This document shows positions 14,238-25,042 of a stretch of DNA of 64,000 bases, piece by piece. Each line of letters opens with the position of its first letter. The stretch's first letter is position 1. Position numbers and translations under genes: made by a program. The notes under the pieces were generated by a model. That model was not told where the DNA came from. It searched no databases and saw only the letters and a program-made list of their open reading frames with translations. Origin of the DNA: Flavobacteriales bacterium (GTDB taxonomy: Bacteria > Bacteroidota > Bacteroidia > Palsa-965); assembly GCA_040377305.1 (NCBI GenBank), contig JBEIPA010000007.1, positions 1-64,000 on the forward strand, written 5' to 3'.

Positions 14238-15443
14238 CTATTCCACCTCGCAAACAAACAGCTTACTCTCCTTATTTCCTTTCAGAGAAAAAAGAGATTG
14301 GAATCCAACTTCTGCAATGATGAAATTCACTGCGGGCGATTTGTATTCTTCAACCACATTACGGATTTCGATATCCTTCAACTCCGACTTGTCGGTGAAG
14401 CGAATGTAAACTTTGATTGAGAAGTCGTTGTCGAGTAAAGCCTTTCCGGGATTTTTTCCGTGGTTGTTCTTTTCCAACTTCTTCAGCTTGCGATAACCGT
14501 ACTTGTAATCGTAGGTTAATGCGGAAACATCAGATAGAACCGCACTACCGGTCGGGTGACTTCCAGCGCCTTTACCCACGAAAGTTTGCTTGCACGAATA
14601 AGCGCCTTCTACTTCGATTGCGTTGTACTCGTACAATACTTTGAAAAGTTCATCGTCCTGTTTTACAAATCGCGGCATCACGTACACACGGAATTTATCC
14701 CCCGATTTTGCTGCGCTACCAATGAGTTTTATGCGTAAACCTTTTTCTTTCGCATAACGAATATCGCTGAAGGAAATGTTTTGTATACCGAGATTCAAAA
14801 CGTCATCCGGCTTGAGCACAACTCCAAACGCATGCACATTGAGCAGAATGGTTTTGAACAATGTGTCATAACCGGCAACATCCATCCATGGATCCAATTC
14901 AGCAAACCCGCTATCCTGCGCATCTTTCAGAACAACACCGTAATCTTTATTCTCCAATTCCATTCGGGTGAGAATATAGTTCGTTGTTCCGTTGAGAATG
15001 CCCCGCAGACTGCTCAACAACTCATTGTCGTAATATTCTTCGAGTGTACGGATGATGGGAATACTTCCGCCAGCCGATCCTTCGTAGATCAACGCCTTGC
15101 CGGTTTCAACCTGTATGCGATACAACTCATCGAAGTATGTAGCCAGCATTTTTTTACTCGCGCTCACTACGTGCATGCCATTGCGCATCGCTGTACTTGC
15201 AATTCGGTATGCTTCTTCGGTATCCGTGATCATTTCCACCACCACATCAACATCTTTTCGGTCGAGAATATCTTTCGACTCATAAGAAAGCAGCGACTGA
15301 TCAACACTTCGCTTCTTCGTGCGGTCTTTCACACCAATGCCGTGGATATTCGCCTGCAACACTTCAGAATGGTTCAACACATCGTACAATCCTTGTCCAA
15401 CGCAACCGAATCCAAACAACGCTACTGATATTTTATTTTCCAT
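14238..15443 (-). CDS. hom: Homoserine dehydrogenase
   Basis: GFGCVG Rossmann motif, YEGSAGGSIPII, GILNGTTNYIL, GKGAGSHPTGSAVLSD. Confidence 0.93.
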   Translation of the reverse strand: MENKISVALFGFGCVGQGLYDVLNHSEVLQANIHGIGVKDRTKKRSVDQSLLSYESKDILDRKDVDVVVEMITDTEEAYRIASTAMRNGMHVVSASKKMLATYFDELYRIQVETGKALIYEGSAGGSIPIIRTLEEYYDNELLSSLRGILNGTTNYILTRMELENKDYGVVLKDAQDSGFAELDPWMDVAGYDTLFKTILLNVHAFGVVLKPDDVLNLGIQNISFSDIRYAKEKGLRIKLIGSAAKSGDKFRVYVMPRFVKQDDELFKVLYEYNAIEVEGAYSCKQTFVGKGAGSHPTGSAVLSDVSALTYDYKYGYRKLKKLEKNNHGKNPGKALLDNDFSIKVYIRFTDKSELKDIEIRNVVEEYKSPAVNFIIAEVGFQSLFSLKGNKESKLFVCEVE

Positions 15444-15509: not shown

Positions 15510-15602
15510 ATATGTAATCGCTGATTCACGGTTCTCCCCTTTTTCCGAAGGGACTCCTTCGGAGGGGGAGTTAGAGGGGCGAGTGAATCAGCGATTACAT
15601 AT
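15510..15602. repeat. Nested hairpin: perfect 20-bp inverted repeat enclosing a REP-like palindrome
   Basis: atatgtaatcgctgattcac (15510-15529) / gtgaatcagcgattacatat (15583-15602); inner tccgaagg-gact-ccttcgga. Confidence 0.8.
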
Positions 15603-16245
15603 GTAGTCCGCACTCTGTCTTCGACCGATTCACCCATCGTCCTTCTCTACCTCGTCCTTTCACCGTACAATGAATGCAACCCACGGAATTGAAACCGTGT
15701 TTCAGTAGCGGATGTTCCGGTAACGAATGTTTGATTATGTATGCTTTCGCTTCTTCATCACTCATATCGATGATCGGATAGAACTTCAGAATTCCGCTCT
15801 TCTCTTCGAAAATGTGCATCTGTTTTCGATAGCTGTTCTGACTTTGCATCAAACCGCTAACCCATACTTCATAACCTGCTTTGATTTTATCGAGAGGTTC
15901 AACTTTATTGATCGAGCAACACAAATCAGGATCCTTACTCCAGGTTTGATCACTGTTGGTGAAATTGTTCTTCCACTCTTCCGGTGTCACGGTGTGAACG
16001 GTAAGTCCAAGCTGTTTCGTCAGCAGCTCTTTGTATTCGAGTGTTTCTGCGAAGTGATAAGTTGTGTCCAGAAAGATCACGTCCTGATTTTTGTTGGCTT
16101 CACTGAAGATGTTGAGTAACACAGCCGATGTTGTTCCGAATGAAGACGTGAGCAGAACCTTGTCGAAATCAACATACAATTGCTTCACGCGTTCAATGGG
16201 CGTGAGGTTGATGTATTTGTTATTTAGTTCCTGTAGGTTCTTCAC
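15595..16245 (-). CDS. cysH: APS/PAPS reductase (Fe-S type)
   Basis: SSFG, FLDTTYHF, CCSINKVEP, SVGCIHCT, REGRW, ECGLH; start set at the GTGA overlap with the upstream gene. Confidence 0.92.
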   Translation of the reverse strand: MKNLQELNNKYINLTPIERVKQLYVDFDKVLLTSSFGTTSAVLLNIFSEANKNQDVIFLDTTYHFAETLEYKELLTKQLGLTVHTVTPEEWKNNFTNSDQTWSKDPDLCCSINKVEPLDKIKAGYEVWVSGLMQSQNSYRKQMHIFEEKSGILKFYPIIDMSDEEAKAYIIKHSLPEHPLLKHGFNSVGCIHCTVKGRGREGRWVNRSKTECGLHM

Positions 16246-17789
16246 AGTAGTACGGAAAGGAGATTCTTGAGACTTACAATGATGATCGCTATAGCAACTA
16301 CAATCAGACCGGTGCGAACAGGAATTTTGGAAGTCAGATAAGCCGCAATCGGAGCAGCAATTACTCCCCCAATAACAAGCCCCGTAATTTCCTGCCAATG
16401 TGTAATTCCCAGAAAGATGAAGAACGTAAATGTGCTCGTGAGTGTAACGAAGAACTCAGCCAACGACACCGAACCCACAGTGTACTTTACATTTCTTCCT
16501 TGTGCGATGAGGGTTGATGAAACAATCGGTCCCCAGCCTCCGCCACCAATGGAATCCAAAAATGCGCCGAAGAAACCGAGGAGCCCAATGCGTTTTACTT
16601 TCCGCTTCTCTTTGAGTTTCTTGATGGCTTTCGTGAGAATTATTCCTCCCAGAATCAATGTGTAGACGGAGACAAATGGTTTTACGTAGACAGCATATTC
16701 TTCCAGACTTGAAAGCACATAAGCACCAATTGCTGCACCGATGATTCCCGGAATCAACAAATGACGAAAGAGCTTACCGTTTACATTTTTAAACTTCAAG
16801 TGGCTCAATCCGGACGCTCCTGTTGTAAATACTTCGGAAGCATGCACACTTGCACTCGTTGCCGCAGGAGAAATTCCGAACGACATCAGAAACGTGGATG
16901 CTGTAACTCCATACGCCATGCCGAGTGAACCGTCAACCATCTGCGCGATGAATCCTGCCGCTACGCAAATCAGCAAGCGAGAGTCAACCTGATCGTAAAC
17001 TGTGCCGGCATATCCGCCGATTGTTTCAAACGGAATAAGACTGAACAGCAGATGTCCGACCACCATCAGACCCAGTGCCGCGAAACCAAATAGCGACCAG
17101 TATTTCCAGGTTCGCTTTTTGCGTTCAACAAGCTCGCCGGCGAGGTGCGGCTGCAGCGAAATAATATTTTTGTTCTTATTGAGAACAGCAGTGACTTCAT
17201 TGAGCACACGGACTTTTTCCGCGAAATCTCCTTTCAGATGTTCACGAAGTTCATGCAGATTCTCCAGCGTCTGCTGACTTTCTTCCGGAATTGATTCGGC
17301 AAGAATTTCTTTCAGTCGCTTGGTAAACGTTGGCGATTTTCCGTTGGAAGAAATGGCAATTTTCAAATCACCTTTCCGCACAACAGACGACAAGTAGAAA
17401 TCGCAGTACGCTGGTGTGTCGGCAACATTGACGAGGAGATTTCTCTTATGCGCTTCAAGAACAAGTTGATTCACCAGATCAAAATCATTGACCGCAATGA
17501 AAACGATATCCTGCTCGTCGAAGTCATCGTTAGTTACTGCGCGCTCTTCCAGAGAAAGATTCGGATATTGTTCCGCAAGCTTTCGTATTTCAGTCTTTAT
17601 CGTTTTGCCAACGAGCTTTACCTGTGTTGCCGGACTATTTCCGAGTACTGCATGAAGTTTTTCTGCGGCAACGTTTCCACCACCGATGACAAGCAAGCGC
17701 AAATCTTCCAGTTTCAGAAAAACGGGGAAGAGCTTGTTGATGCCGGAAGTTTCGGAGGCAACGTCTGCAGAAATTTCTTCAGTATTCAC
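16242..17789 (-). CDS. Fusion: precorrin-2 dehydrogenase/ferrochelatase (SirC/Met8-like) + TauE/SafE (TSUP) transporter
   Basis: FPVFLKL, VIGGGNVA, VNVAD..CDFY, KIAISSNGKSP; then AGFIAQMVDGSLGMAYG, DSIGGGGWGP and multiple TMs. Confidence 0.88.
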   Translation of the reverse strand: MNTEEISADVASETSGINKLFPVFLKLEDLRLLVIGGGNVAAEKLHAVLGNSPATQVKLVGKTIKTEIRKLAEQYPNLSLEERAVTNDDFDEQDIVFIAVNDFDLVNQLVLEAHKRNLLVNVADTPAYCDFYLSSVVRKGDLKIAISSNGKSPTFTKRLKEILAESIPEESQQTLENLHELREHLKGDFAEKVRVLNEVTAVLNKNKNIISLQPHLAGELVERKKRTWKYWSLFGFAALGLMVVGHLLFSLIPFETIGGYAGTVYDQVDSRLLICVAAGFIAQMVDGSLGMAYGVTASTFLMSFGISPAATSASVHASEVFTTGASGLSHLKFKNVNGKLFRHLLIPGIIGAAIGAYVLSSLEEYAVYVKPFVSVYTLILGGIILTKAIKKLKEKRKVKRIGLLGFFGAFLDSIGGGGWGPIVSSTLIAQGRNVKYTVGSVSLAEFFVTLTSTFTFFIFLGITHWQEITGLVIGGVIAAPIAAYLTSKIPVRTGLIVVAIAIIIVSLKNLLSVLL

Positions 17790-18526
17790 TTCGCCGCCTC
17801 CTTGGGTTTAGGTGCAAGCGTGAACTGATAGATAATTCTTCCGTTGTGAAACTCATCCACGACTGTGCTGTTTCGTTGCAGATACAGGTATAAATAGGTC
17901 AGTTGAATACTGTGGTTGGCATTGAATTTATAACCAACTCCAGCCCACGACCGATTCTGATCGAACGCAGAAAAACCATTAGTTTTTTGGTAAACGAAAA
18001 ATTCATTTCCGGCAATCAGGAAAAGCGGAGATGGTCTTTCTGCACTTCCAAACGAGTACGTGTAATCAACACGCAATCGCAAGCGGAAGGAATGAAAGGT
18101 GAAATTATCGGCAAGTTCAATACCGGCATATTCCTTAATGAAACGCTGTTCAAAACGCGCTCGTGGATAAATCACATGGTGTGAATTCGGTTTGAATTTA
18201 TAACCGACTTCCTGCCACGGTCGTAATTCGGGGCGCGCAGGAAGTTCGTTAGGGTTGGGATAGAGCTGCCAATAGGAAATGCCCGGTGACAACAGCAATC
18301 CCTTTTTGCTTTTCCACGTGGCACAGGGTCGTATCGTCCATTGGAAAATATCACCATCGGTGTATTCATAACGAAATTGTGCATCCAGCCACGCCGACCA
18401 ACTTTCGTTGAATTTGTATTCACCCAAAAGTCCAGTCCACACCAGACTGCGTGTGTTCACAACGCGATCTTGCGCTGAACTGCCTAATGAACTAACTAAA
18501 GCAATCATTACGAGTAACTTTTTCAT
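17786..18526 (-). CDS. DUF2490-like outer-membrane barrel (paralog 2)
   Basis: Signal peptide, ELRPWQE, RARFEQRF, RLRLR, GNEFF, FDQNRSWAGVGY. Confidence 0.8.
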   Translation of the reverse strand: MKKLLVMIALVSSLGSSAQDRVVNTRSLVWTGLLGEYKFNESWSAWLDAQFRYEYTDGDIFQWTIRPCATWKSKKGLLLSPGISYWQLYPNPNELPARPELRPWQEVGYKFKPNSHHVIYPRARFEQRFIKEYAGIELADNFTFHSFRLRLRVDYTYSFGSAERPSPLFLIAGNEFFVYQKTNGFSAFDQNRSWAGVGYKFNANHSIQLTYLYLYLQRNSTVVDEFHNGRIIYQFTLAPKPKEAAK

Positions 18527-18579
18527 ACACACCTTCTTGCTGAAAATTGCAACGCGAAGGTACGTTTTGGGTGTGAAAC

Positions 18580-19326
18580 TTATTTCTGAGAATCGTCAAT
18601 TTGCTGTCGGGTTTGCCCAGTGAATTGTAGTGTTAACCGAATCACGTGGAATTGATCAAAAATAGTACGGGCCCGTTGCTGATAAATGTGGAGATACGTG
18701 AGTTGCGCAGCGAAAGACGCAGTGATCTTGTATGCGAATCCTACCCAAATGCGATTTTGATCATGTGATGTAAAACCGTTTTCGCGACGATGAAACATGA
18801 TTTCGTCTCCAAGCACGAGGGACCATCTTCGGGTTCCTGAATCGCCCAAGGAATAGAAGTACTCCGCACGAAACCTCAGCCGATAAGTGTGAAAGTTAAA
18901 TTCATCAGCGAGTTCAGTACCGTCATACTCTTTAAAGAATCGTTGTTCAAAACGAACACGTGGATAAAAGCTGTGATGAATTCCGAAATCAAATTTCCTT
19001 CCCGCTTCCTGCCACGGTCTGAGCTCCGGTCGCGATGGGCGTCCGTTGGGATTTGAATAGTGAAGGAATGCACAACCACCCGCTGTTAACTGAATTCCGA
19101 ATGCGTTTTTGTATTGCAAACCGCTCCGTATGCCCGATTGGAAAATGTCACCGTCTGTTGTTTCAATGCGAAACAATGCATCGTTCACGATAGACCACTT
19201 CTCGTTGAGCTTGTAGTGTAGTGTTACCGATCCCCAGAACAAGTTGCGCGTATTGACCGTTCGCGATGTTTGAGCGGGAAGGAATGTTGTGATGAGCAAG
19301 GCCAGCACAACCAGGTACTTTTTCAT
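18580..19326 (-). CDS. DUF2490-like outer-membrane barrel (paralog 1)
   Basis: Signal peptide, ELRPWQE, RVRFEQRF, RLRFR, GDEIM, DQNRIWVGFAY. Confidence 0.8.
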   Translation of the reverse strand: MKKYLVVLALLITTFLPAQTSRTVNTRNLFWGSVTLHYKLNEKWSIVNDALFRIETTDGDIFQSGIRSGLQYKNAFGIQLTAGGCAFLHYSNPNGRPSRPELRPWQEAGRKFDFGIHHSFYPRVRFEQRFFKEYDGTELADEFNFHTYRLRFRAEYFYSLGDSGTRRWSLVLGDEIMFHRRENGFTSHDQNRIWVGFAYKITASFAAQLTYLHIYQQRARTIFDQFHVIRLTLQFTGQTRQQIDDSQK

Positions 19327-19333
19327 TTAGTCC

Positions 19334-19969
19334 TCAAAGATTTGGTTGTGGAGTCGTTCGCAGATAAGATTTGATGCGTGTGTATCCTTTCGGAAACTTC
19401 GCAGCAATTTCTTCGTCTTTAACTGCCGGCACAATTATTACATCATCGCCATGTTTCCAATCGGCTGGTGTGGCAACACTATAGTTTGCGGTGAGCTGAA
19501 GTGAATCGATCACACGAATGAGTTCATCGAAATTTCTTCCCGTGCTCGCTGGATAAGTGATGGTCAGTTTTATTTTCTTGTCAGGACCAATCACAAATAC
19601 AGAACGTACCGTGAATTTCTCACTGGCATTCGGATGAATCATATCGTAAAGGGTCGCAACATTTCGATCAGAATCCGCAATGATCGGAAAGTTCACCGTC
19701 GTATTCTGGGTTTCGTTAATGTCTTTAACCCAGCTGATGTGCGACTCAAGCGGATCAACACTCACAGCAAGCACTTTCACCCCGCGCTTGTCGAATTCGG
19801 ATTTAAGCTTTGCGGTGCGTCCAAGTTCGGTTGTGCAAACCGGTGTATAATCGGCAGGATGTGAAAACAAAACACCCCAACTGTTGCTTAGCCATTCGTG
19901 GAAGTTGATTGTTCCTTCTGTTGTTTGAGCGCTGAAGTCTGGCGCAAGATCTCCTAATCGTAGTGACAT
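19334..19969 (-). CDS. 1-Cys peroxiredoxin (Prx6 family)
   Basis: FSHPADYTPVCTTE, TVRSVFVI, YPASTGRNFDE, ATPADW. Confidence 0.95.
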   Translation of the reverse strand: MSLRLGDLAPDFSAQTTEGTINFHEWLSNSWGVLFSHPADYTPVCTTELGRTAKLKSEFDKRGVKVLAVSVDPLESHISWVKDINETQNTTVNFPIIADSDRNVATLYDMIHPNASEKFTVRSVFVIGPDKKIKLTITYPASTGRNFDELIRVIDSLQLTANYSVATPADWKHGDDVIIVPAVKDEEIAAKFPKGYTRIKSYLRTTPQPNL

Positions 19970-19993: not shown

Positions 19994-20764
19994 CTAATTG
20001 AGTAATTGATTCTCCAGCGAAAGTACGTAGGCTGCTTGAGGATTCTTGCGAACAACCTCACCAATGACAATGACAGCGGGCGACTTTATTCCTTCCTGCT
20101 TGACTACATCAACGATTGTATCGACAGAACCAATGGCAGCGTTTTCTGTCGGAAGCGATCCGTCCTGAATTACCGCAACAGGCGTAGAGCCTTGTCCAAA
20201 CTTCTGAAACACATTTACAATTTCAGGAAGCTTTGCAAGACCCATCAATACGATGACAGTTGCTTTTGATTGCGCGGCGAGTTTGAAATCTTCCGGAAGT
20301 TTTCCTTCGCTGTTTCTTCCGGTAAGAACCCAGAAACTTTCTGTTACACCACGATGCGTTACGGGAATTCGTTGCAAGGCCGGAACACCAATTGAACTGG
20401 TGATTCCCGGTACAATATCTGTCGGAATATTAAACTGCTCCACATATTCGAGTTCTTCACTTCCGCGTCCGAATACAAATGAATCACCGCCTTTCAAGCG
20501 AACAACGTGTCCGTGGGTGAAAGCATAATCAACAAGTAGCGTGTTTATCTGTTCTTGCGGGTACGCATGGTGACCTTCGCGTTTTCCCACGTAAATTTTC
20601 TTCGCATCAATGGGCGCGTACTTGAATATTTCGGGATTAACGAGTGCATCATAAAGAATTACGTCTGCTTCACTAAGTGCATTAATTCCTTTTACGGTGA
20701 TCAAATCCGGGTCTCCGGGGCCTGCACCTACGAGTGTTACTTTGGGGAAAATATGTTTTGACAT
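19994..20764 (-). CDS. cobA: Uroporphyrinogen-III C-methyltransferase (siroheme synthesis)
   Basis: LVGAGPGDPDLIT, VILYDALV, VVRLKGGD, VPGITS, IPVTHRG; start set at MSKHIFPK. Confidence 0.93.
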   Translation of the reverse strand: MSKHIFPKVTLVGAGPGDPDLITVKGINALSEADVILYDALVNPEIFKYAPIDAKKIYVGKREGHHAYPQEQINTLLVDYAFTHGHVVRLKGGDSFVFGRGSEELEYVEQFNIPTDIVPGITSSIGVPALQRIPVTHRGVTESFWVLTGRNSEGKLPEDFKLAAQSKATVIVLMGLAKLPEIVNVFQKFGQGSTPVAVIQDGSLPTENAAIGSVDTIVDVVKQEGIKSPAVIVIGEVVRKNPQAAYVLSLENQLLN

Positions 20765-20948: not shown

Positions 20949-23075
20949 TCAATTCAGTGTTGGATCTATTACAAATGTTTGTTTTTCCAGTTCCGGGATA
21001 GAATCAAGAAACAAGCGCGCTTCATTGATATACTTGATCGCAAATTCCTTCTCGGGCTTGTTCAACGAGATTTGTGTCACGAGCTCTTTGAATGTCACCG
21101 GAATCAAAAGCTCCAGTTGAAAGTGCTTGTCAAAATCATGTATGATTCCATGTTGTGTATTCACTTGTACATCACGTTTCAGCAAAAGCGCTTTGGCAGC
21201 GTGAATAAATGCATTGTACGCTTTATACGTTGCGTCATTGTAGCGACCCGCTGAGAAATTCTCATGGGCAGCTTGTAACGCATCTTTTGCCTCGAAGAGT
21301 AGGGTTGCGGTCAAATCAATTTTCACCCCGGCACATTCTCCGATTCCGATTGCAGTTGCGTACCGCTCTTCCTGTCCCCAGTCAATGAACTCTTGTGCTT
21401 TCACATCGTGTGTTGAAGAAAATGCTTTGAGCAACTGATAGAAGTAGTCTTTGCCTTTGCGATCGTAGTACGCAATGAAATCTTCGGACTGATATTTCAA
21501 TTGGGAAAAATCCGCAAGCAAAGTGCGCAACACCGCAGTGGCCCGCTTCGAAGGAAATTTCAGGATCTTGTCGGCAATCCTGCCTTCACCATTTCCTGAA
21601 ATTCCTCCGCCGAGCAGAAGTTGTAAAGCGGGAACCACATCATTACCCGACTTTACAGAACTGCCGTGAAATCCGATTGACGCAACCGCGTGTTGTCCGC
21701 AACTGTTCATGCAACCACTGATTTTTATTGAAAGATCTTTCTGCGCTGCGAATTGCTGAAATTCAGTTTGAATCACATTTTCCAATGCAGCAGATACACT
21801 AGTGCTGTTTGAAATTGCCAGGTTGCACGTGTCTGTTCCCGGGCAGGAAGTAATATCTGCGAAGGCGTTGGCGCCAACTTCGGCAAAACTATTGGGGTTC
21901 AGTTCGCGATAGAGTGCAGGTAATGCAGTTTCATGAACATACCGAAGTAGCAAGCTTTGTCCGATTGTAACGCGCACATCATCGGCAGCGTATTTCTCAG
22001 CGATGGTTGCGAATACACGCACCCGATCCGAAAGAATGTTTCCTTGCGGAATCTTTACAAATACACCGTACCATCCTTGCTGTTTCTGTTCAAAGGTGTT
22101 CGCTGATTTCCACGCCTGAAATTTCTCATCATTCGTCACACGAAAAGTTGTGAATGCTTGCTGCAGAACCTTAGGGGTTGATTCTTCCGCGACCTCAATT
22201 TTCTGTTTCGTGTGCAACAATGCGCCCTTCTCGATTTCAGTCAAACGCAATACTTCTTCAATGCCGAGTTTCGCAACGAGATACTTCAATCGCGCTTTCT
22301 GACGATTGTTTCTTTCTCCGTGACGATCGAAGACACGGATCAAAGCCTCTGAGAACGGAATCAATTCATCGACCGGAAGAAATTCAAACGCAATGTGCGC
22401 CGGAATCGGTTGTGCACCGAGTCCACCTCCCAGCAGGACTTTAAATCCTCGGGTGATTTTTCCATCAATGATTTCCACTTTCGGAATGAAACCGAGATCG
22501 TGAATGAAGCTGATTGCTGTATCGTTGTCGGATGAAGAAAACGAAATCTTGATTTTTCTTCCGAGATCCTGCTGAATCGGATTGCGCAGGAAGTGACGGA
22601 ACAGCGCATTTGCGTACGGCGTGATATCGAATGGTTCGTTTGGATCAATTCCCGCAAGAACAGAACCGGTGATATTACGCACCGTGTTTCCGCAAGCTTC
22701 ACGCAAAGTGAGTTCATCGCGCTCAAGTTCTGCCCACAATTGCGGTGTACGATCAAGACTCACGAAATGAAACTGCACATCTTGCCTTGTGGTAAGGTGA
22801 AGATTTCCGGTTGAGTACTCATCACTCAGATCAGCAAGCCGCCGCAGTTGCACGAAGGAAAGTTTTCCATGAGGAACTTTGATGCGAACCATGTTCACGC
22901 CTTGCTGACGCTGCCCATACACACCACGCGCCAGACGCAGTGCACGGAATTTCTCCGGATCAATTTTGCCTTCCTGGAAAAGTTGAATCTTCTCCGCAAG
23001 TTGAGCGATATCTTTTTCGATGATCACTTGTCCATTTACCGCCGGACTTTCTAATTCTGTTCTGAAGCTTTGCAT
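20949..23075 (-). CDS. Ferredoxin-type sulfite/nitrite reductase hemoprotein with C-terminal HEPN-like domain
   Basis: RLARGVYGQRQ, HLTTRQD, EACGNTVRN, SCPGTDTC and SGCMNSCGQH siroheme/Fe-S ligands; C-terminal AYNAFIHAAKALLL..NTQHGII; start MQSFRTE. Confidence 0.92.
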   Translation of the reverse strand: MQSFRTELESPAVNGQVIIEKDIAQLAEKIQLFQEGKIDPEKFRALRLARGVYGQRQQGVNMVRIKVPHGKLSFVQLRRLADLSDEYSTGNLHLTTRQDVQFHFVSLDRTPQLWAELERDELTLREACGNTVRNITGSVLAGIDPNEPFDITPYANALFRHFLRNPIQQDLGRKIKISFSSSDNDTAISFIHDLGFIPKVEIIDGKITRGFKVLLGGGLGAQPIPAHIAFEFLPVDELIPFSEALIRVFDRHGERNNRQKARLKYLVAKLGIEEVLRLTEIEKGALLHTKQKIEVAEESTPKVLQQAFTTFRVTNDEKFQAWKSANTFEQKQQGWYGVFVKIPQGNILSDRVRVFATIAEKYAADDVRVTIGQSLLLRYVHETALPALYRELNPNSFAEVGANAFADITSCPGTDTCNLAISNSTSVSAALENVIQTEFQQFAAQKDLSIKISGCMNSCGQHAVASIGFHGSSVKSGNDVVPALQLLLGGGISGNGEGRIADKILKFPSKRATAVLRTLLADFSQLKYQSEDFIAYYDRKGKDYFYQLLKAFSSTHDVKAQEFIDWGQEERYATAIGIGECAGVKIDLTATLLFEAKDALQAAHENFSAGRYNDATYKAYNAFIHAAKALLLKRDVQVNTQHGIIHDFDKHFQLELLIPVTFKELVTQISLNKPEKEFAIKYINEARLFLDSIPELEKQTFVIDPTLN

Positions 23076-23081
23076 TTGTAT

Positions 23082-23102
23082 TGTCAGGTCTCCGACCTGA
23101 CA
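23082..23102. promoter_or_regulatory. Perfect palindrome 6 nt upstream of the sulfite reductase start
   Basis: tgtcaggtc-tcc-gacctgaca. Confidence 0.7.
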
Positions 23103-23114
23103 TGGTTTTAGTTT

Positions 23115-23165
23115 GTGATGTCGGGATCCCAATCCCGACGGTGATGTCGGGATCCCAATCCCGAC
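23115..23165. repeat. Two tandem copies (26-bp period) of a REP-like hairpin
   Basis: gtgatgtcgggatcccaatcccgac twice; core gtcgggat-ccca-atcccgac. Confidence 0.8.
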
Positions 23166-23175
23166 ATTTACTCAG

Positions 23176-23246
23176 AGGTCTCGGGCGGAATTGAACCGCC
23201 ATATCAAGTTTTGCAGACTTGTGCCTAACCATTCGGCCACAAGACC
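23176..23246 (-). tRNA. tRNA-Cys (GCA), CCA not encoded
   Basis: GGTCTTG/CGAGACC acceptor stem, D-arm GCCGAATGGTTAGGC, anticodon arm CAAGT-CT-GCA-AA-ACTTG, T-arm GGCGG-TTCAATT-CCGCC, U discriminator. Confidence 0.96.
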
Positions 23247-23297
23247 AGTTTATTGTTTCACTAATTTTTCCTTTGGGAATCGCGAGAGCGTAGAAAT

Positions 23298-23332
23298 AAA
23301 AAAGCCTCCGCGGTTCTATCCGGGAGGCTTTT
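23298..23332 (-). terminator. Intrinsic terminator of the Met/Cys attenuator
   Basis: mRNA aaaagcctcccgg-atagaa-ccgcggaggcttttttattt. Confidence 0.88.
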
Positions 23333-23355
23333 GCTCAACACACCAACATTTGTTT

Positions 23356-23451
23356 TCACATTCGTGTATCACCTCCCGTACTGCACATCATGCAGCAGCA
23401 CATCATACACATCATGTATGACTGAGAGTTGATATTACGAGTGATTTTCAT
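23356..23451 (-). CDS. Attenuator leader peptide 1, MKITRNINSQSYMMCMMCCCMMCSTGGDTRM
   Basis: 31 codons with 11 consecutive Met/Cys codons; codons 25-27 (acg gga ggt) contain cgggagg, complementary to cctcccg in the terminator 5' arm. Confidence 0.88.
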   Translation of the reverse strand: MKITRNINSQSYMMCMMCCCMMCSTGGDTRM

Positions 23452-23499
23452 GTTGATATAATTCTAATTTTTTTGAAAGGCCGAAACCTTTTGCGTGGA

Positions 23500-23532
23500 C
23501 AAAGATATGCGCGAATATTTCAGTAAAACAAA
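23500..23532 (-). promoter_or_regulatory. Bacteroidota housekeeping-sigma promoter of the sulfur operon
   Basis: Minus strand TTTG-N21-TATCTTTG (-33/-7 consensus), 48 nt upstream of the leader ATG. Confidence 0.75.
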
Positions 23533-23662
23533 TTTCGTCGTAAAAAAAGTTGAGTTCGCGTGATAAAAGGCGGAACTGAACAACATAATTATAGCATGTA
23601 TTCAATTGATAAGCAGCGTATTGCGGCGGACCAAAAATATTTTGAATTCGGGAGTTGGACAG

Positions 23663-25042
23663 CTACTTTTTTCGATCTGTTGTTTTGACAAGAACGCCAT
23701 TCTCATAAAGTTCTTCGCGCACAAGCTTGCCGCGCTCATCATAAACTTTCCACCAACCTGTTTTGGTGTAAGTTGGTTCTCCCGAAAGGTGGTGCGCCCA
23801 AGCTATTGGAAGATATTCTCCTTCTTCCTTTTTCTTCGAATTTGGATAATAGAAAGTCCATACTCCCGTGCGCAAATAACGGTAAGTTCCGGATGGAGTG
23901 TATAATCGTGCAGTGTCTTGGGATAACAATGGTGAGCGTAGGTAGTGTATTACAGAATCTATACTCACGGTAGGTTTATCATGAGAATATTCATGACAGA
24001 TCCAGAAGCAGAGTCCGATTTCTCTTAGCTCCAGTTCATATTGCCAGGGTACCGGAACACGACACGCTCGCTTCTGCGAGGACTGCGCGAGCAGGTAGCC
24101 AGGATTAGTTGATAGAGTTCCATTGGAAATTAAATTCCCTTCCTGATCGAATTCCTTTAACGAAGTTCTTCCAGTACTCTCGTCATGAAAATATTCTTCT
24201 CGTTTCTTTCCATTCACATGGTACCAGATGCATGAGCCGGAATATTCATCATTCTTAAAATGACATATTGAAATAATTCTTCCCTGTTGCCAAGAAGTAT
24301 CTGTGCCGTTTCTTTCGCCATGTAAGTATTCCCGAGATGAAACCAACTCTTTGTTGAAATACGATTTCCATCGTCCTTCTTTTTTTCCGGACTTGAAATT
24401 GCCTTTACTGTATTGAAATTTGTCGTGCACTTCAATCCATTCTCCTTCTTCTTTTCCGTTAATGTATGTACCGCCTCCAATTAAGGTATCGTGTGAAGTA
24501 ACCACCCATTTTCCGTGATAACCAAATTCATTCACGGAACCTTTCCAGGTGAGGTACCCTTGTTGGATTTCCCAAAGTCCTTCCGGTACATCATTTACAA
24601 AATGCCGGATCTCGGTCACTTTACCTTCTTCGTCAAACACTAGCCAATCGCCATGTGCTTTCCCACCCTGGTAGTATCTTTTCTCCTCTACGATAGTCGA
24701 GTATTGGTGATAGTAAACCACCTCACCATTCAGCAGATTATTCTTATAGTTGAATTTAGCTGAAGGATCATTGGATCTCCATTCCCCTTCCTTCTTCCCA
24801 TTCCGGTAGGTTCCTGAGTAGGTTGTATATCCATTCCGCTTGATCTCCCACCAGCCTTCTTTCAGTCCATTCTCCACACGACCAACTGCCGTCCAGCCCC
24901 CACATAAATCAAAAGTGTCAGTTAATGAAGCCGCGTTCTCAACTTCATCACCATTGGGATAAATCGTGATTGTTCCGGTTCTATTCTGCCCTGCGAGTGT
25001 GGCACACAACAAGACCAAAAACCATGTCGCAAGTTTTCCCAT
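23663..25042 (-). CDS. Secreted MORN-variant repeat protein (YwqK-like)
   Basis: Signal peptide and repeated GxYxNGKKEGxW units. Confidence 0.82.
   Translation of the reverse strand: MGKLATWFLVLLCATLAGQNRTGTITIYPNGDEVENAASLTDTFDLCGGWTAVGRVENGLKEGWWEIKRNGYTTYSGTYRNGKKEGEWRSNDPSAKFNYKNNLLNGEVVYYHQYSTIVEEKRYYQGGKAHGDWLVFDEEGKVTEIRHFVNDVPEGLWEIQQGYLTWKGSVNEFGYHGKWVVTSHDTLIGGGTYINGKEEGEWIEVHDKFQYSKGNFKSGKKEGRWKSYFNKELVSSREYLHGERNGTDTSWQQGRIISICHFKNDEYSGSCIWYHVNGKKREEYFHDESTGRTSLKEFDQEGNLISNGTLSTNPGYLLAQSSQKRACRVPVPWQYELELREIGLCFWICHEYSHDKPTVSIDSVIHYLRSPLLSQDTARLYTPSGTYRYLRTGVWTFYYPNSKKKEEGEYLPIAWAHHLSGEPTYTKTGWWKVYDERGKLVREELYENGVLVKTTDRKK

Follow-up and report, generated by a model that had tools for sequence, protein, structure and literature searches.

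Why should a run of methionine and cysteine codons, followed by a terminator, stand in front of a sulfite-reduction gene cluster in a Flavobacteriales genome? In the window (the whole 64,000-nucleotide stretch of DNA analysed here), the initial annotation had read this arrangement as a leader-peptide attenuator responding to shortage of either sulfur amino acid. From our analysis of the locus, its genome and its relatives, the element probably acts as a transcription attenuator read by the ribosome: stalling on Cys or, probably, Met codons would free an antiterminator. We consider ribosome-mediated attenuation in general to be very probable, and its dual Met/Cys version to be probable. The putative regulatory region contains the following features.

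23500..23532, minus strand: Bacteroidota-type promoter motif, with TTTG at 23532-23529, a 21-nt spacer and TATCTTTG at 23507-23500
23356..23451, minus strand: leader ORF of 31 codons, peptide MKITRNINSQSYMMCMMCCCMMCSTGGDTRM, with an A-rich upstream context and A at -3
23383..23415, minus strand: control codons 13-23 (6 Met, 5 Cys), run MMCMMCCCMMC
23415-23389, minus strand: control codons 13-21, predicted to be effective; codons 22-23 are predicted to be masked by the ribosome footprint
23371..23378, minus strand: antiterminator strand CGGGAGGT, 13 nt past the CCC triplet of the run, pairing with the terminator 5' arm at 23328-23321
23337..23370, minus strand: inner hairpin within the predicted antiterminator helix, including the leader stop codon
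23294..23332, minus strand: intrinsic-terminator-like hairpin and U tract, about -18 kcal/mol

The individual elements were present much as first described. The claimed TTTG-N21-TATCTTTG motif lies at 23532-23500, and we take it to be a promoter on the basis of the -33/-7 Bacteroidota consensus. The leader ATG lies 48 nt downstream of this motif, and the 31-codon frame contains the reported six ATG and five TGY codons. The proposed complementarity is found between CGGGAGG (23378-23372) and CCTCCCG (23327-23321), and the stated distance of 23 nt from stop codon to U-tailed terminator holds if the AAAAG arm is included; the hairpin proper occupies 23332-23302 and is followed by TTTTTTATTT. A generic sigma-70 promoter/terminator scan detected neither the promoter nor the terminator of the leader, and the leader peptide had no Pfam or NCBIfam match. 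The leader region was more stable than 200/200 shuffles (z = -4.16). An 801-base stretch was found unchanged in one sequencing run and near-identical leader pieces in two more, all of them DNA data.

The leader is not a chance occurrence in the 5.18-Mb host genome. A six-frame scan returned two stop-to-stop frames with 10/10 Met/Cys codons, the window leader and a poly-Cys stretch without Met. A loose Met/Cys filter passed 376 short ORFs, of which 28 had a terminator and three also had the promoter motif. Two of these three candidates head sulfate-assimilation genes: the window leader, and a leader with peptide MKNNSAIYKSLLKTMSCCMCISR (G000:C49:71862-71933, plus strand, locus L167) directly before cysC-cysD-cysN, which has the promoter motif, an antiterminator immediately past its stop codon and a terminator. 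Together they would constitute a two-operon regulon. No Met/Cys leader was found upstream of the metX-like, metZ or cysteine-synthase-like genes of this genome. A His leader, MNMNKTTFHHHMLHHCKL (G000:C17:118828, minus strand), with promoter motif, terminator and complementary strand, precedes two ORFs that we name HisG and HisD by likeness. A SAM-I riboswitch scoring above cut-off precedes metH (G000:C49:49754-49959, minus strand, locus L135); a palindromic insertion lengthens it to about 206 nt.

We investigated conservation at loci chosen by homology to the reductase of the cluster and not by the leader itself, fetching 30 loci from 32 matching genomes among 61 searched. The initial annotation had proposed scanning upstream of orthologous sulfite reductases for Met/Cys codon runs and for terminator/antiterminator covariation. 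The first part of this gave a clear result, with a Met/Cys leader and terminator within 1.5 kb upstream of the reductase at 26/30 loci, 18 of which had two in series, but covariation in fixed alignment columns of the antiterminator was weak (see below). Within the same family a leader was present at 22/22 loci and a tandem pair at 16/22. The four loci without a leader in 1.5 kb belong to other families, and at least two of them have a coding gene just upstream; their leaders may lie further away. The leaders come in two builds, a short type that ends just before the antiterminator, to which the cysC leader of the host belongs, and a long type, as in the window, that runs through it.

Two consecutive units are found in most members of the family; the window copy is a single unit. 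In a quick protein tree, the window genome groups with three other carriers of one long unit in a clade (support 100) that is nested among tandem carriers (99), and loss of the first unit in this clade is therefore probable; G004 is a tandem carrier that was mislabelled in the tree through de-duplication. At cysC, a short-type unit lies upstream at 15/21 same-genus loci, the host genome included, and at 0/7 loci of other families. The TAnnTTTG promoter motif was found upstream of 43/44 first units and 0/19 second units. The unpublished genome G012 contributes two units at the reductase and one at cysC to these counts, and none of the claims depends on it alone. Among 185,579 species scanned for the pattern there were 104 matches, of which 45 were complete units, all titled Bacteroidota or Ignavibacteria; the failures were 5 Bacteroidota matches and 54/54 from other phyla. 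The next gene behind the 45 units was cysK-like in 22, metY-like in 5 and a reductase in another 5; three units preceded a peroxiredoxin and one a tRNA-Cys, and for nine the next gene was out of view. One cysK and one metY were confirmed by HMM and the remainder judged by N-terminal likeness. Cultured carriers of such leaders are Draconibacterium, Maribellus and Mangrovibacterium.

The placement of the control codons was measured relative to the antiterminator in 63 units from the gene-chosen loci; four were dropped for having no 5-bp helix or a misplaced one, and 48 were non-redundant. In 3-nt bins before the antiterminator, Met and Cys together made up 85-98% of codons at 11-25 nt, 40% at 8-10 nt and only 3/75 codons (4%) at 0-7 nt, an edge that fits the ribosome footprint. 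ATG accounted for 125/381 codons in the counted interval, compared with 15 for its nine single-change neighbour codons together, and occurred 125 times in frame versus twice out of frame. Both Cys codons were used (TGT 72, TGC 95). Since the filter could itself favour Met, the count was repeated on the 36 units whose Cys codons suffice to pass it: Met still made up 83/252 codons, compared with 2.3% in the long ORFs of the genome, and 34/36 of these units had at least two. A Met-free unit exists in G047, and metY leaders were not visibly richer in Met than cysK leaders. The units come from kin that are not independent, and the p-values of the codon, promoter and pairing statistics are overstated. 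The comparisons indicate that Met is selected as a codon in these leaders. Dual sensing gains support because Met is placed as sharply as Cys, lies in frame and persists in the units that pass on Cys alone.

When the antiterminator helix was tested in fixed columns, covariation was weak in a MAFFT alignment of 24/25 long-type units, from which the G012 unit was left out: 71% were paired (30/500 shuffles), and covariation gave 50/500. This is probably due to a one-base register slip between lineages. As this result was unconvincing, we added a register-free swap test. In 53 units, searched in a region set by the position of the Cys codons, pairing with the unit's own terminator arm averaged -11.2 kcal/mol, compared with -8.8 kcal/mol for permuted arms (0/10,000 permutations). 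The short (A-type) units alone gave 29/10,000, and at tandem loci own arms were preferred over a within-genome swap in 19/19. Unit by unit, only 37/53 beat 95/100 shuffles in pairing.

Folding with and without a ribosome footprint, also proposed at the outset, supported the attenuator reading. In constrained folding of nascent RNA that includes the terminator 5' arm but lacks the 3' arm, the antiterminator formed with a probability of about 1 when the ribosomal A site was at codons 12-21. The predicted point of loss was codon 22 or 23, according to a covered stretch of 12 or 9 nt. The last control codons, 22-23 (with 21 borderline), lie under the footprint and are predicted to be unable to open the switch. 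In naked RNA of the window copy the leader is predicted to fold on itself, leaving no antiterminator and allowing the terminator to form. For the complete segment the terminator state (-31.6 kcal/mol) was 2 kcal/mol more stable than the antiterminator state (-29.6), and the equilibrium probability of the terminator was at least 0.99 at every ribosome position; since the terminator wins at equilibrium, the switch would have to be kinetic. A protector (1:2) hairpin was predicted in the window copy and in 20/50 units overall, with 30/50 forming the antiterminator on naked RNA; by these predictions the protector is not general among the units. A string found between the leader stop and the terminator, TGTTGGTGTGTTGAGC (window 23330-23347, minus strand), is kept in many long-type units, at loci L002-L004, L007, L009, L012, L019 and L149. 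In the naked-RNA folding of the window copy it pairs with the leader start region, and it might act as a pause element.

The initial annotation had placed this leader at the head of a sulfur-assimilation operon. A sulfite-reduction cluster does lie downstream, but the first gene is an extra tRNA-Cys, which had been overlooked. The genes behind the terminator are as follows.

23175..23246, minus strand: extra tRNA-Cys(GCA), first gene past the terminator; a second copy on contig C30 is identical at 57/72 nt
23076..23174, minus strand: REP-like short repeated palindromes between the tRNA and the reductase
20949..23075, minus strand: nitrite/sulfite reductase family protein, 708 aa, with a C-terminal HEPN domain (20949-21310)
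19994..20764, minus strand: uroporphyrinogen-III C-methyltransferase (siroheme synthesis)
19334..19969, minus strand: 1-Cys peroxiredoxin
18580-19326 and 17786-18532, minus strand: two DUF2490 proteins
16242..17789, minus strand: siroheme synthase N-terminal domain (CysG-N) fused to a TauE/SafE permease
15595..16245, minus strand: CysH, phosphoadenylyl-sulfate reductase
14238..15443, minus strand: homoserine dehydrogenase (carbon skeleton for Met), the last same-strand gene of the cluster

The reductase scores below all NCBIfam cut-offs and is assigned as a sulfite reductase by gene context. Homoserine dehydrogenase is found in the cluster of relatives too. The REP-like palindromes at 23076-23174 are probably recent insertions, because in one contig of another sequencing run 15 nt stand in place of this first set; similar palindromic repeats also occur between cluster genes at 15520-15600.

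The tRNA-Cys has a cloverleaf, a GCA anticodon and a U73 discriminator, a base with a role in tRNA-Cys identity; the 3' CCA is encoded in neither genomic copy. With zero or one mismatch allowed, the interval between terminator and reductase contained no TAnnTTTG motif, from which we infer that the tRNA is made by read-through. Among the 35 family genomes, nine have a tRNA-Cys inside the leader-headed cluster: in seven it comes directly past the last terminator (G029 has two copies), and in the other two it is one gene further on. In 8/9 a separate tRNA-Cys copy was found elsewhere. Eight of the operon copies, from seven genomes, had a mean column identity of 76%, yet 97.5% of pairs were kept, with 14/20 pairs changed on both sides (0/500 shuffles), and all eight kept GCA and U73. 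Judged by this pattern, they look functional. The leader-linked tRNA-Cys was absent from the closest relatives G015, G007, G010 and G014; by this distribution it is easily lost, as G015 has an identical leader peptide and is without the tRNA. In G029 and G020, where a reductase query at 1e-100 gave no match, leaders and tRNA-Cys precede peroxiredoxin and homoserine dehydrogenase (L148, G029:C2; L149, G020:C89). Second tRNA-Cys matches in G051, within a tRNA array, and in G025 were not linked to a leader. The host genome itself has an array of 15 tRNA genes (G000:C7:88552-97060), one of them with a TAT anticodon, and the array in G051 is a similar one of 20 genes (L151).

Two pattern searches for the leader-tRNA arrangement were narrow in reach. 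A leader-to-tRNA pattern matched 2/35 family genomes, one of these a chance hit, and was too rigid to recover the window locus; a phylum-wide terminator and tRNA-Cys pattern gave 2/401, which is no measure of spread as it could not match the longer spacing of the window. A separate cassette was found in other Bacteroidia, in which the promoter motif, a short leader and a terminator precede tRNA-Cys in 15 loci (L189:1370-1670; L195-L208), drawn from genomes and metagenome contigs and several of them near-identical. The three loci with tRNA-Cys and tRNA-Phe have three to four Phe codons in the control stretch (Phe+Cys leaders), and the 12 with tRNA-Cys alone have Cys leaders with one to two Phe codons, many near-identical and most with GTG starts. 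This cassette backs the idea that the tRNA cargo is purposeful. Most likely the extra tRNA-Cys would raise the share of scarce cysteine going to translation; alternatively, processing at the tRNA could separate the leader from the mRNA.

The mechanism that we propose is as follows. When a ribosome stalls at Cys or, probably, Met codons, the antiterminator strand would be free to block the terminator, and the antiterminator would form on nascent RNA before the terminator 3' arm is made. A ribosome reaching codon 23 or further would prevent this, and the terminator would then form. Read-through would extend into the extra tRNA-Cys and the sulfite-reduction genes, which would be co-transcribed. 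Such a device would involve translation of the leader, kinetic control and a response to uncharged tRNA-Cys and elongator tRNA-Met. Sensing of Met raises a problem of logic, in that Met also starts the leader: since the naked RNA of the window copy is predicted to terminate, a Met shortage that blocked leader initiation would repress the cluster and not induce it. Metabolically, Met sensing is sensible because the MetZ and MetX-like proteins encoded in the host genome could feed sulfide directly into Met synthesis, and homoserine dehydrogenase is in the cluster. We regard as evenly balanced the fuller proposal of a Met-responsive attenuator with a feedback loop, in which low charged tRNA-Cys would call up both a spare tRNA-Cys and sulfur assimilation, as part of a wider habit among Bacteroidia of keeping tRNA genes behind codon-matched leaders.

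The strongest competitor to dual sensing, which we consider improbable, is that the attenuator reads Cys only, with Met codons being spacers, by-products of ATG-TGY repeat slippage, or inert since Met shortage blocks initiation, an idea that the terminating naked RNA of the window copy favours. The CC/CCC element is the most constant core of the run, Cys is commoner than Met at 14-25 nt, some units have little or no Met (G043, G047), the cargo tRNA is a tRNA-Cys, and metH of the host genome is already under a SAM-I riboswitch. However, neutral spacers would accept Ile, Val, Leu, Thr and Lys codons, and ATG (125) far outnumbers its nine neighbours (15). Met also swaps for Cys position by position, stops at the footprint edge where Cys stops and hardly ever occurs out of frame. 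The homoserine dehydrogenase in the cluster and the similar leaders heading metY likewise count against a Cys-only reading.

Two further explanations were considered. Met/Cys clusters bind soft metals and are redox-active, and the cluster encodes a peroxiredoxin, so that the nascent peptide might act like an arrest peptide that reacts with a ligand (metal, oxidant or SAM), or the product might be a metal-binding micropeptide. This is hard to reconcile with how little the peptides share outside the Met/Cys run, with lengths of about 15 to 35 residues, with the interchange of Met and Cys, with a run positioned relative to an RNA helix and not to the peptide ends, and with the lack of any protein family match, and we consider it very unlikely. 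We give marginally less credence still to a constitutive partial terminator or processing signal with an untranslated ORF and regulation by a protein factor. It would suit a terminator that wins at equilibrium, but in-frame codon selection, fixed spacing and own-arm specificity would be purposeless without translation. Ribosome-mediated attenuation remains our preferred reading, and the fixed spacing between codons and antiterminator in relatives, the own-arm specificity, the sulfur genes downstream and the promoter motif before first units bear out the trp/his/thr-type layout first claimed for this locus.

Reading two amino acids with one leader is established for the thr and ilv attenuators, which are multivalent. 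Compared with the classical attenuators, the present leaders differ in sensing the pair Met and Cys, in lacking a conserved protector hairpin, in often being tandem in relatives and in having a tRNA as first cargo, and they are known here from sequence alone. The trp and his attenuators of E. coli and Salmonella, as covered in PMC1183508, likewise have a leader ORF, control codons for the product of the pathway, a competing antiterminator and an intrinsic terminator. The same source describes super-attenuation, the termination that occurs without leader translation, which is what is predicted for the window copy, and an RNA-polymerase pause site as essential to attenuation.

Among Cys-codon leaders, the Rhodobacterales motif uORFC-8-2, upstream of cysS (Brewer et al. 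2021, PMC8632094), resembles the window leader in having a Cys-codon leader, an intrinsic terminator and read-through on low Cys-tRNA, and is likewise only predicted; in the passage on this motif it differs in having two Cys codons with no Met mentioned, in being alphaproteobacterial and in controlling a synthetase. In mycobacteria, polycysteine leaderless sORFs act as translational attenuators, as shown experimentally (10.1101/834739), and Cys leaders without terminators have been predicted in Actinobacteria (PMC1262725). The mycobacterial sORFs share the opening of sulfur/cysteine genes by stalling on Cys codons, but hide a Shine-Dalgarno sequence, have no intrinsic terminator, and are leaderless, poly-Cys only and actinobacterial. 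The window leader was not assigned to that class, as it starts 48 nt past the promoter motif, has a terminator and is followed by a tRNA gene.

RNA-level control of amino-acid genes is represented in the same phylum, for other amino acids, by the Bacteroid-trp motif RF01692 (PMC2864571) and by the His leader of the host, which has the same promoter-leader-antiterminator-terminator build as the window leader. SAM-I riboswitches (RF00162) and T-boxes likewise act on sulfur amino-acid genes through terminator/antiterminator control. A SAM riboswitch or T-box was considered for the window element and rejected, as an Rfam search of 22800-23900 found neither and placed only the tRNA above cut-off; the best leader family, Phe_leader, was below threshold (19.9 bits vs a cut-off of 55).

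Attenuator surveys covering Bacteroidota exist in subscription journals. In the full-text literature searched, which comprised main texts and few subscription journals, we found no Met-codon attenuator, no Bacteroidota Met/Cys leader and no leader-controlled tRNA gene, and nothing usable on the charging of initiator versus elongator tRNA-Met. Passages of PMC7366714, PMC6429828, PMC4833913, PMC2965389, PMC2494555 and PMC2864571 contained no such leader; also relevant here may be the sORFs listed in PMC7366714 and the motifs tabulated in PMC8632094. On strong comparative support, the element is likely of classical attenuator build, with a sensor pair and a tRNA cargo that were absent from the literature searched.

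If this reading is correct, many Bacteroidota would control sulfate assimilation through ribosome-read leaders that answer to both sulfur amino acids. Met is an awkward signal for a leader that it also starts, and such leaders would allow one to test directly whether the elongator tRNA-Met loses its charge earlier than the initiator. The single unit here, the tandem units of sister lineages and the cultured carriers lend themselves to comparison. Annotation of sulfur genes, for example those for the DUF2490 proteins and the HEPN-fused reductase, could also profit from the leaders. With a tRNA gene as the cargo of an attenuator, control specific to one amino acid would extend to the supply of tRNA itself.
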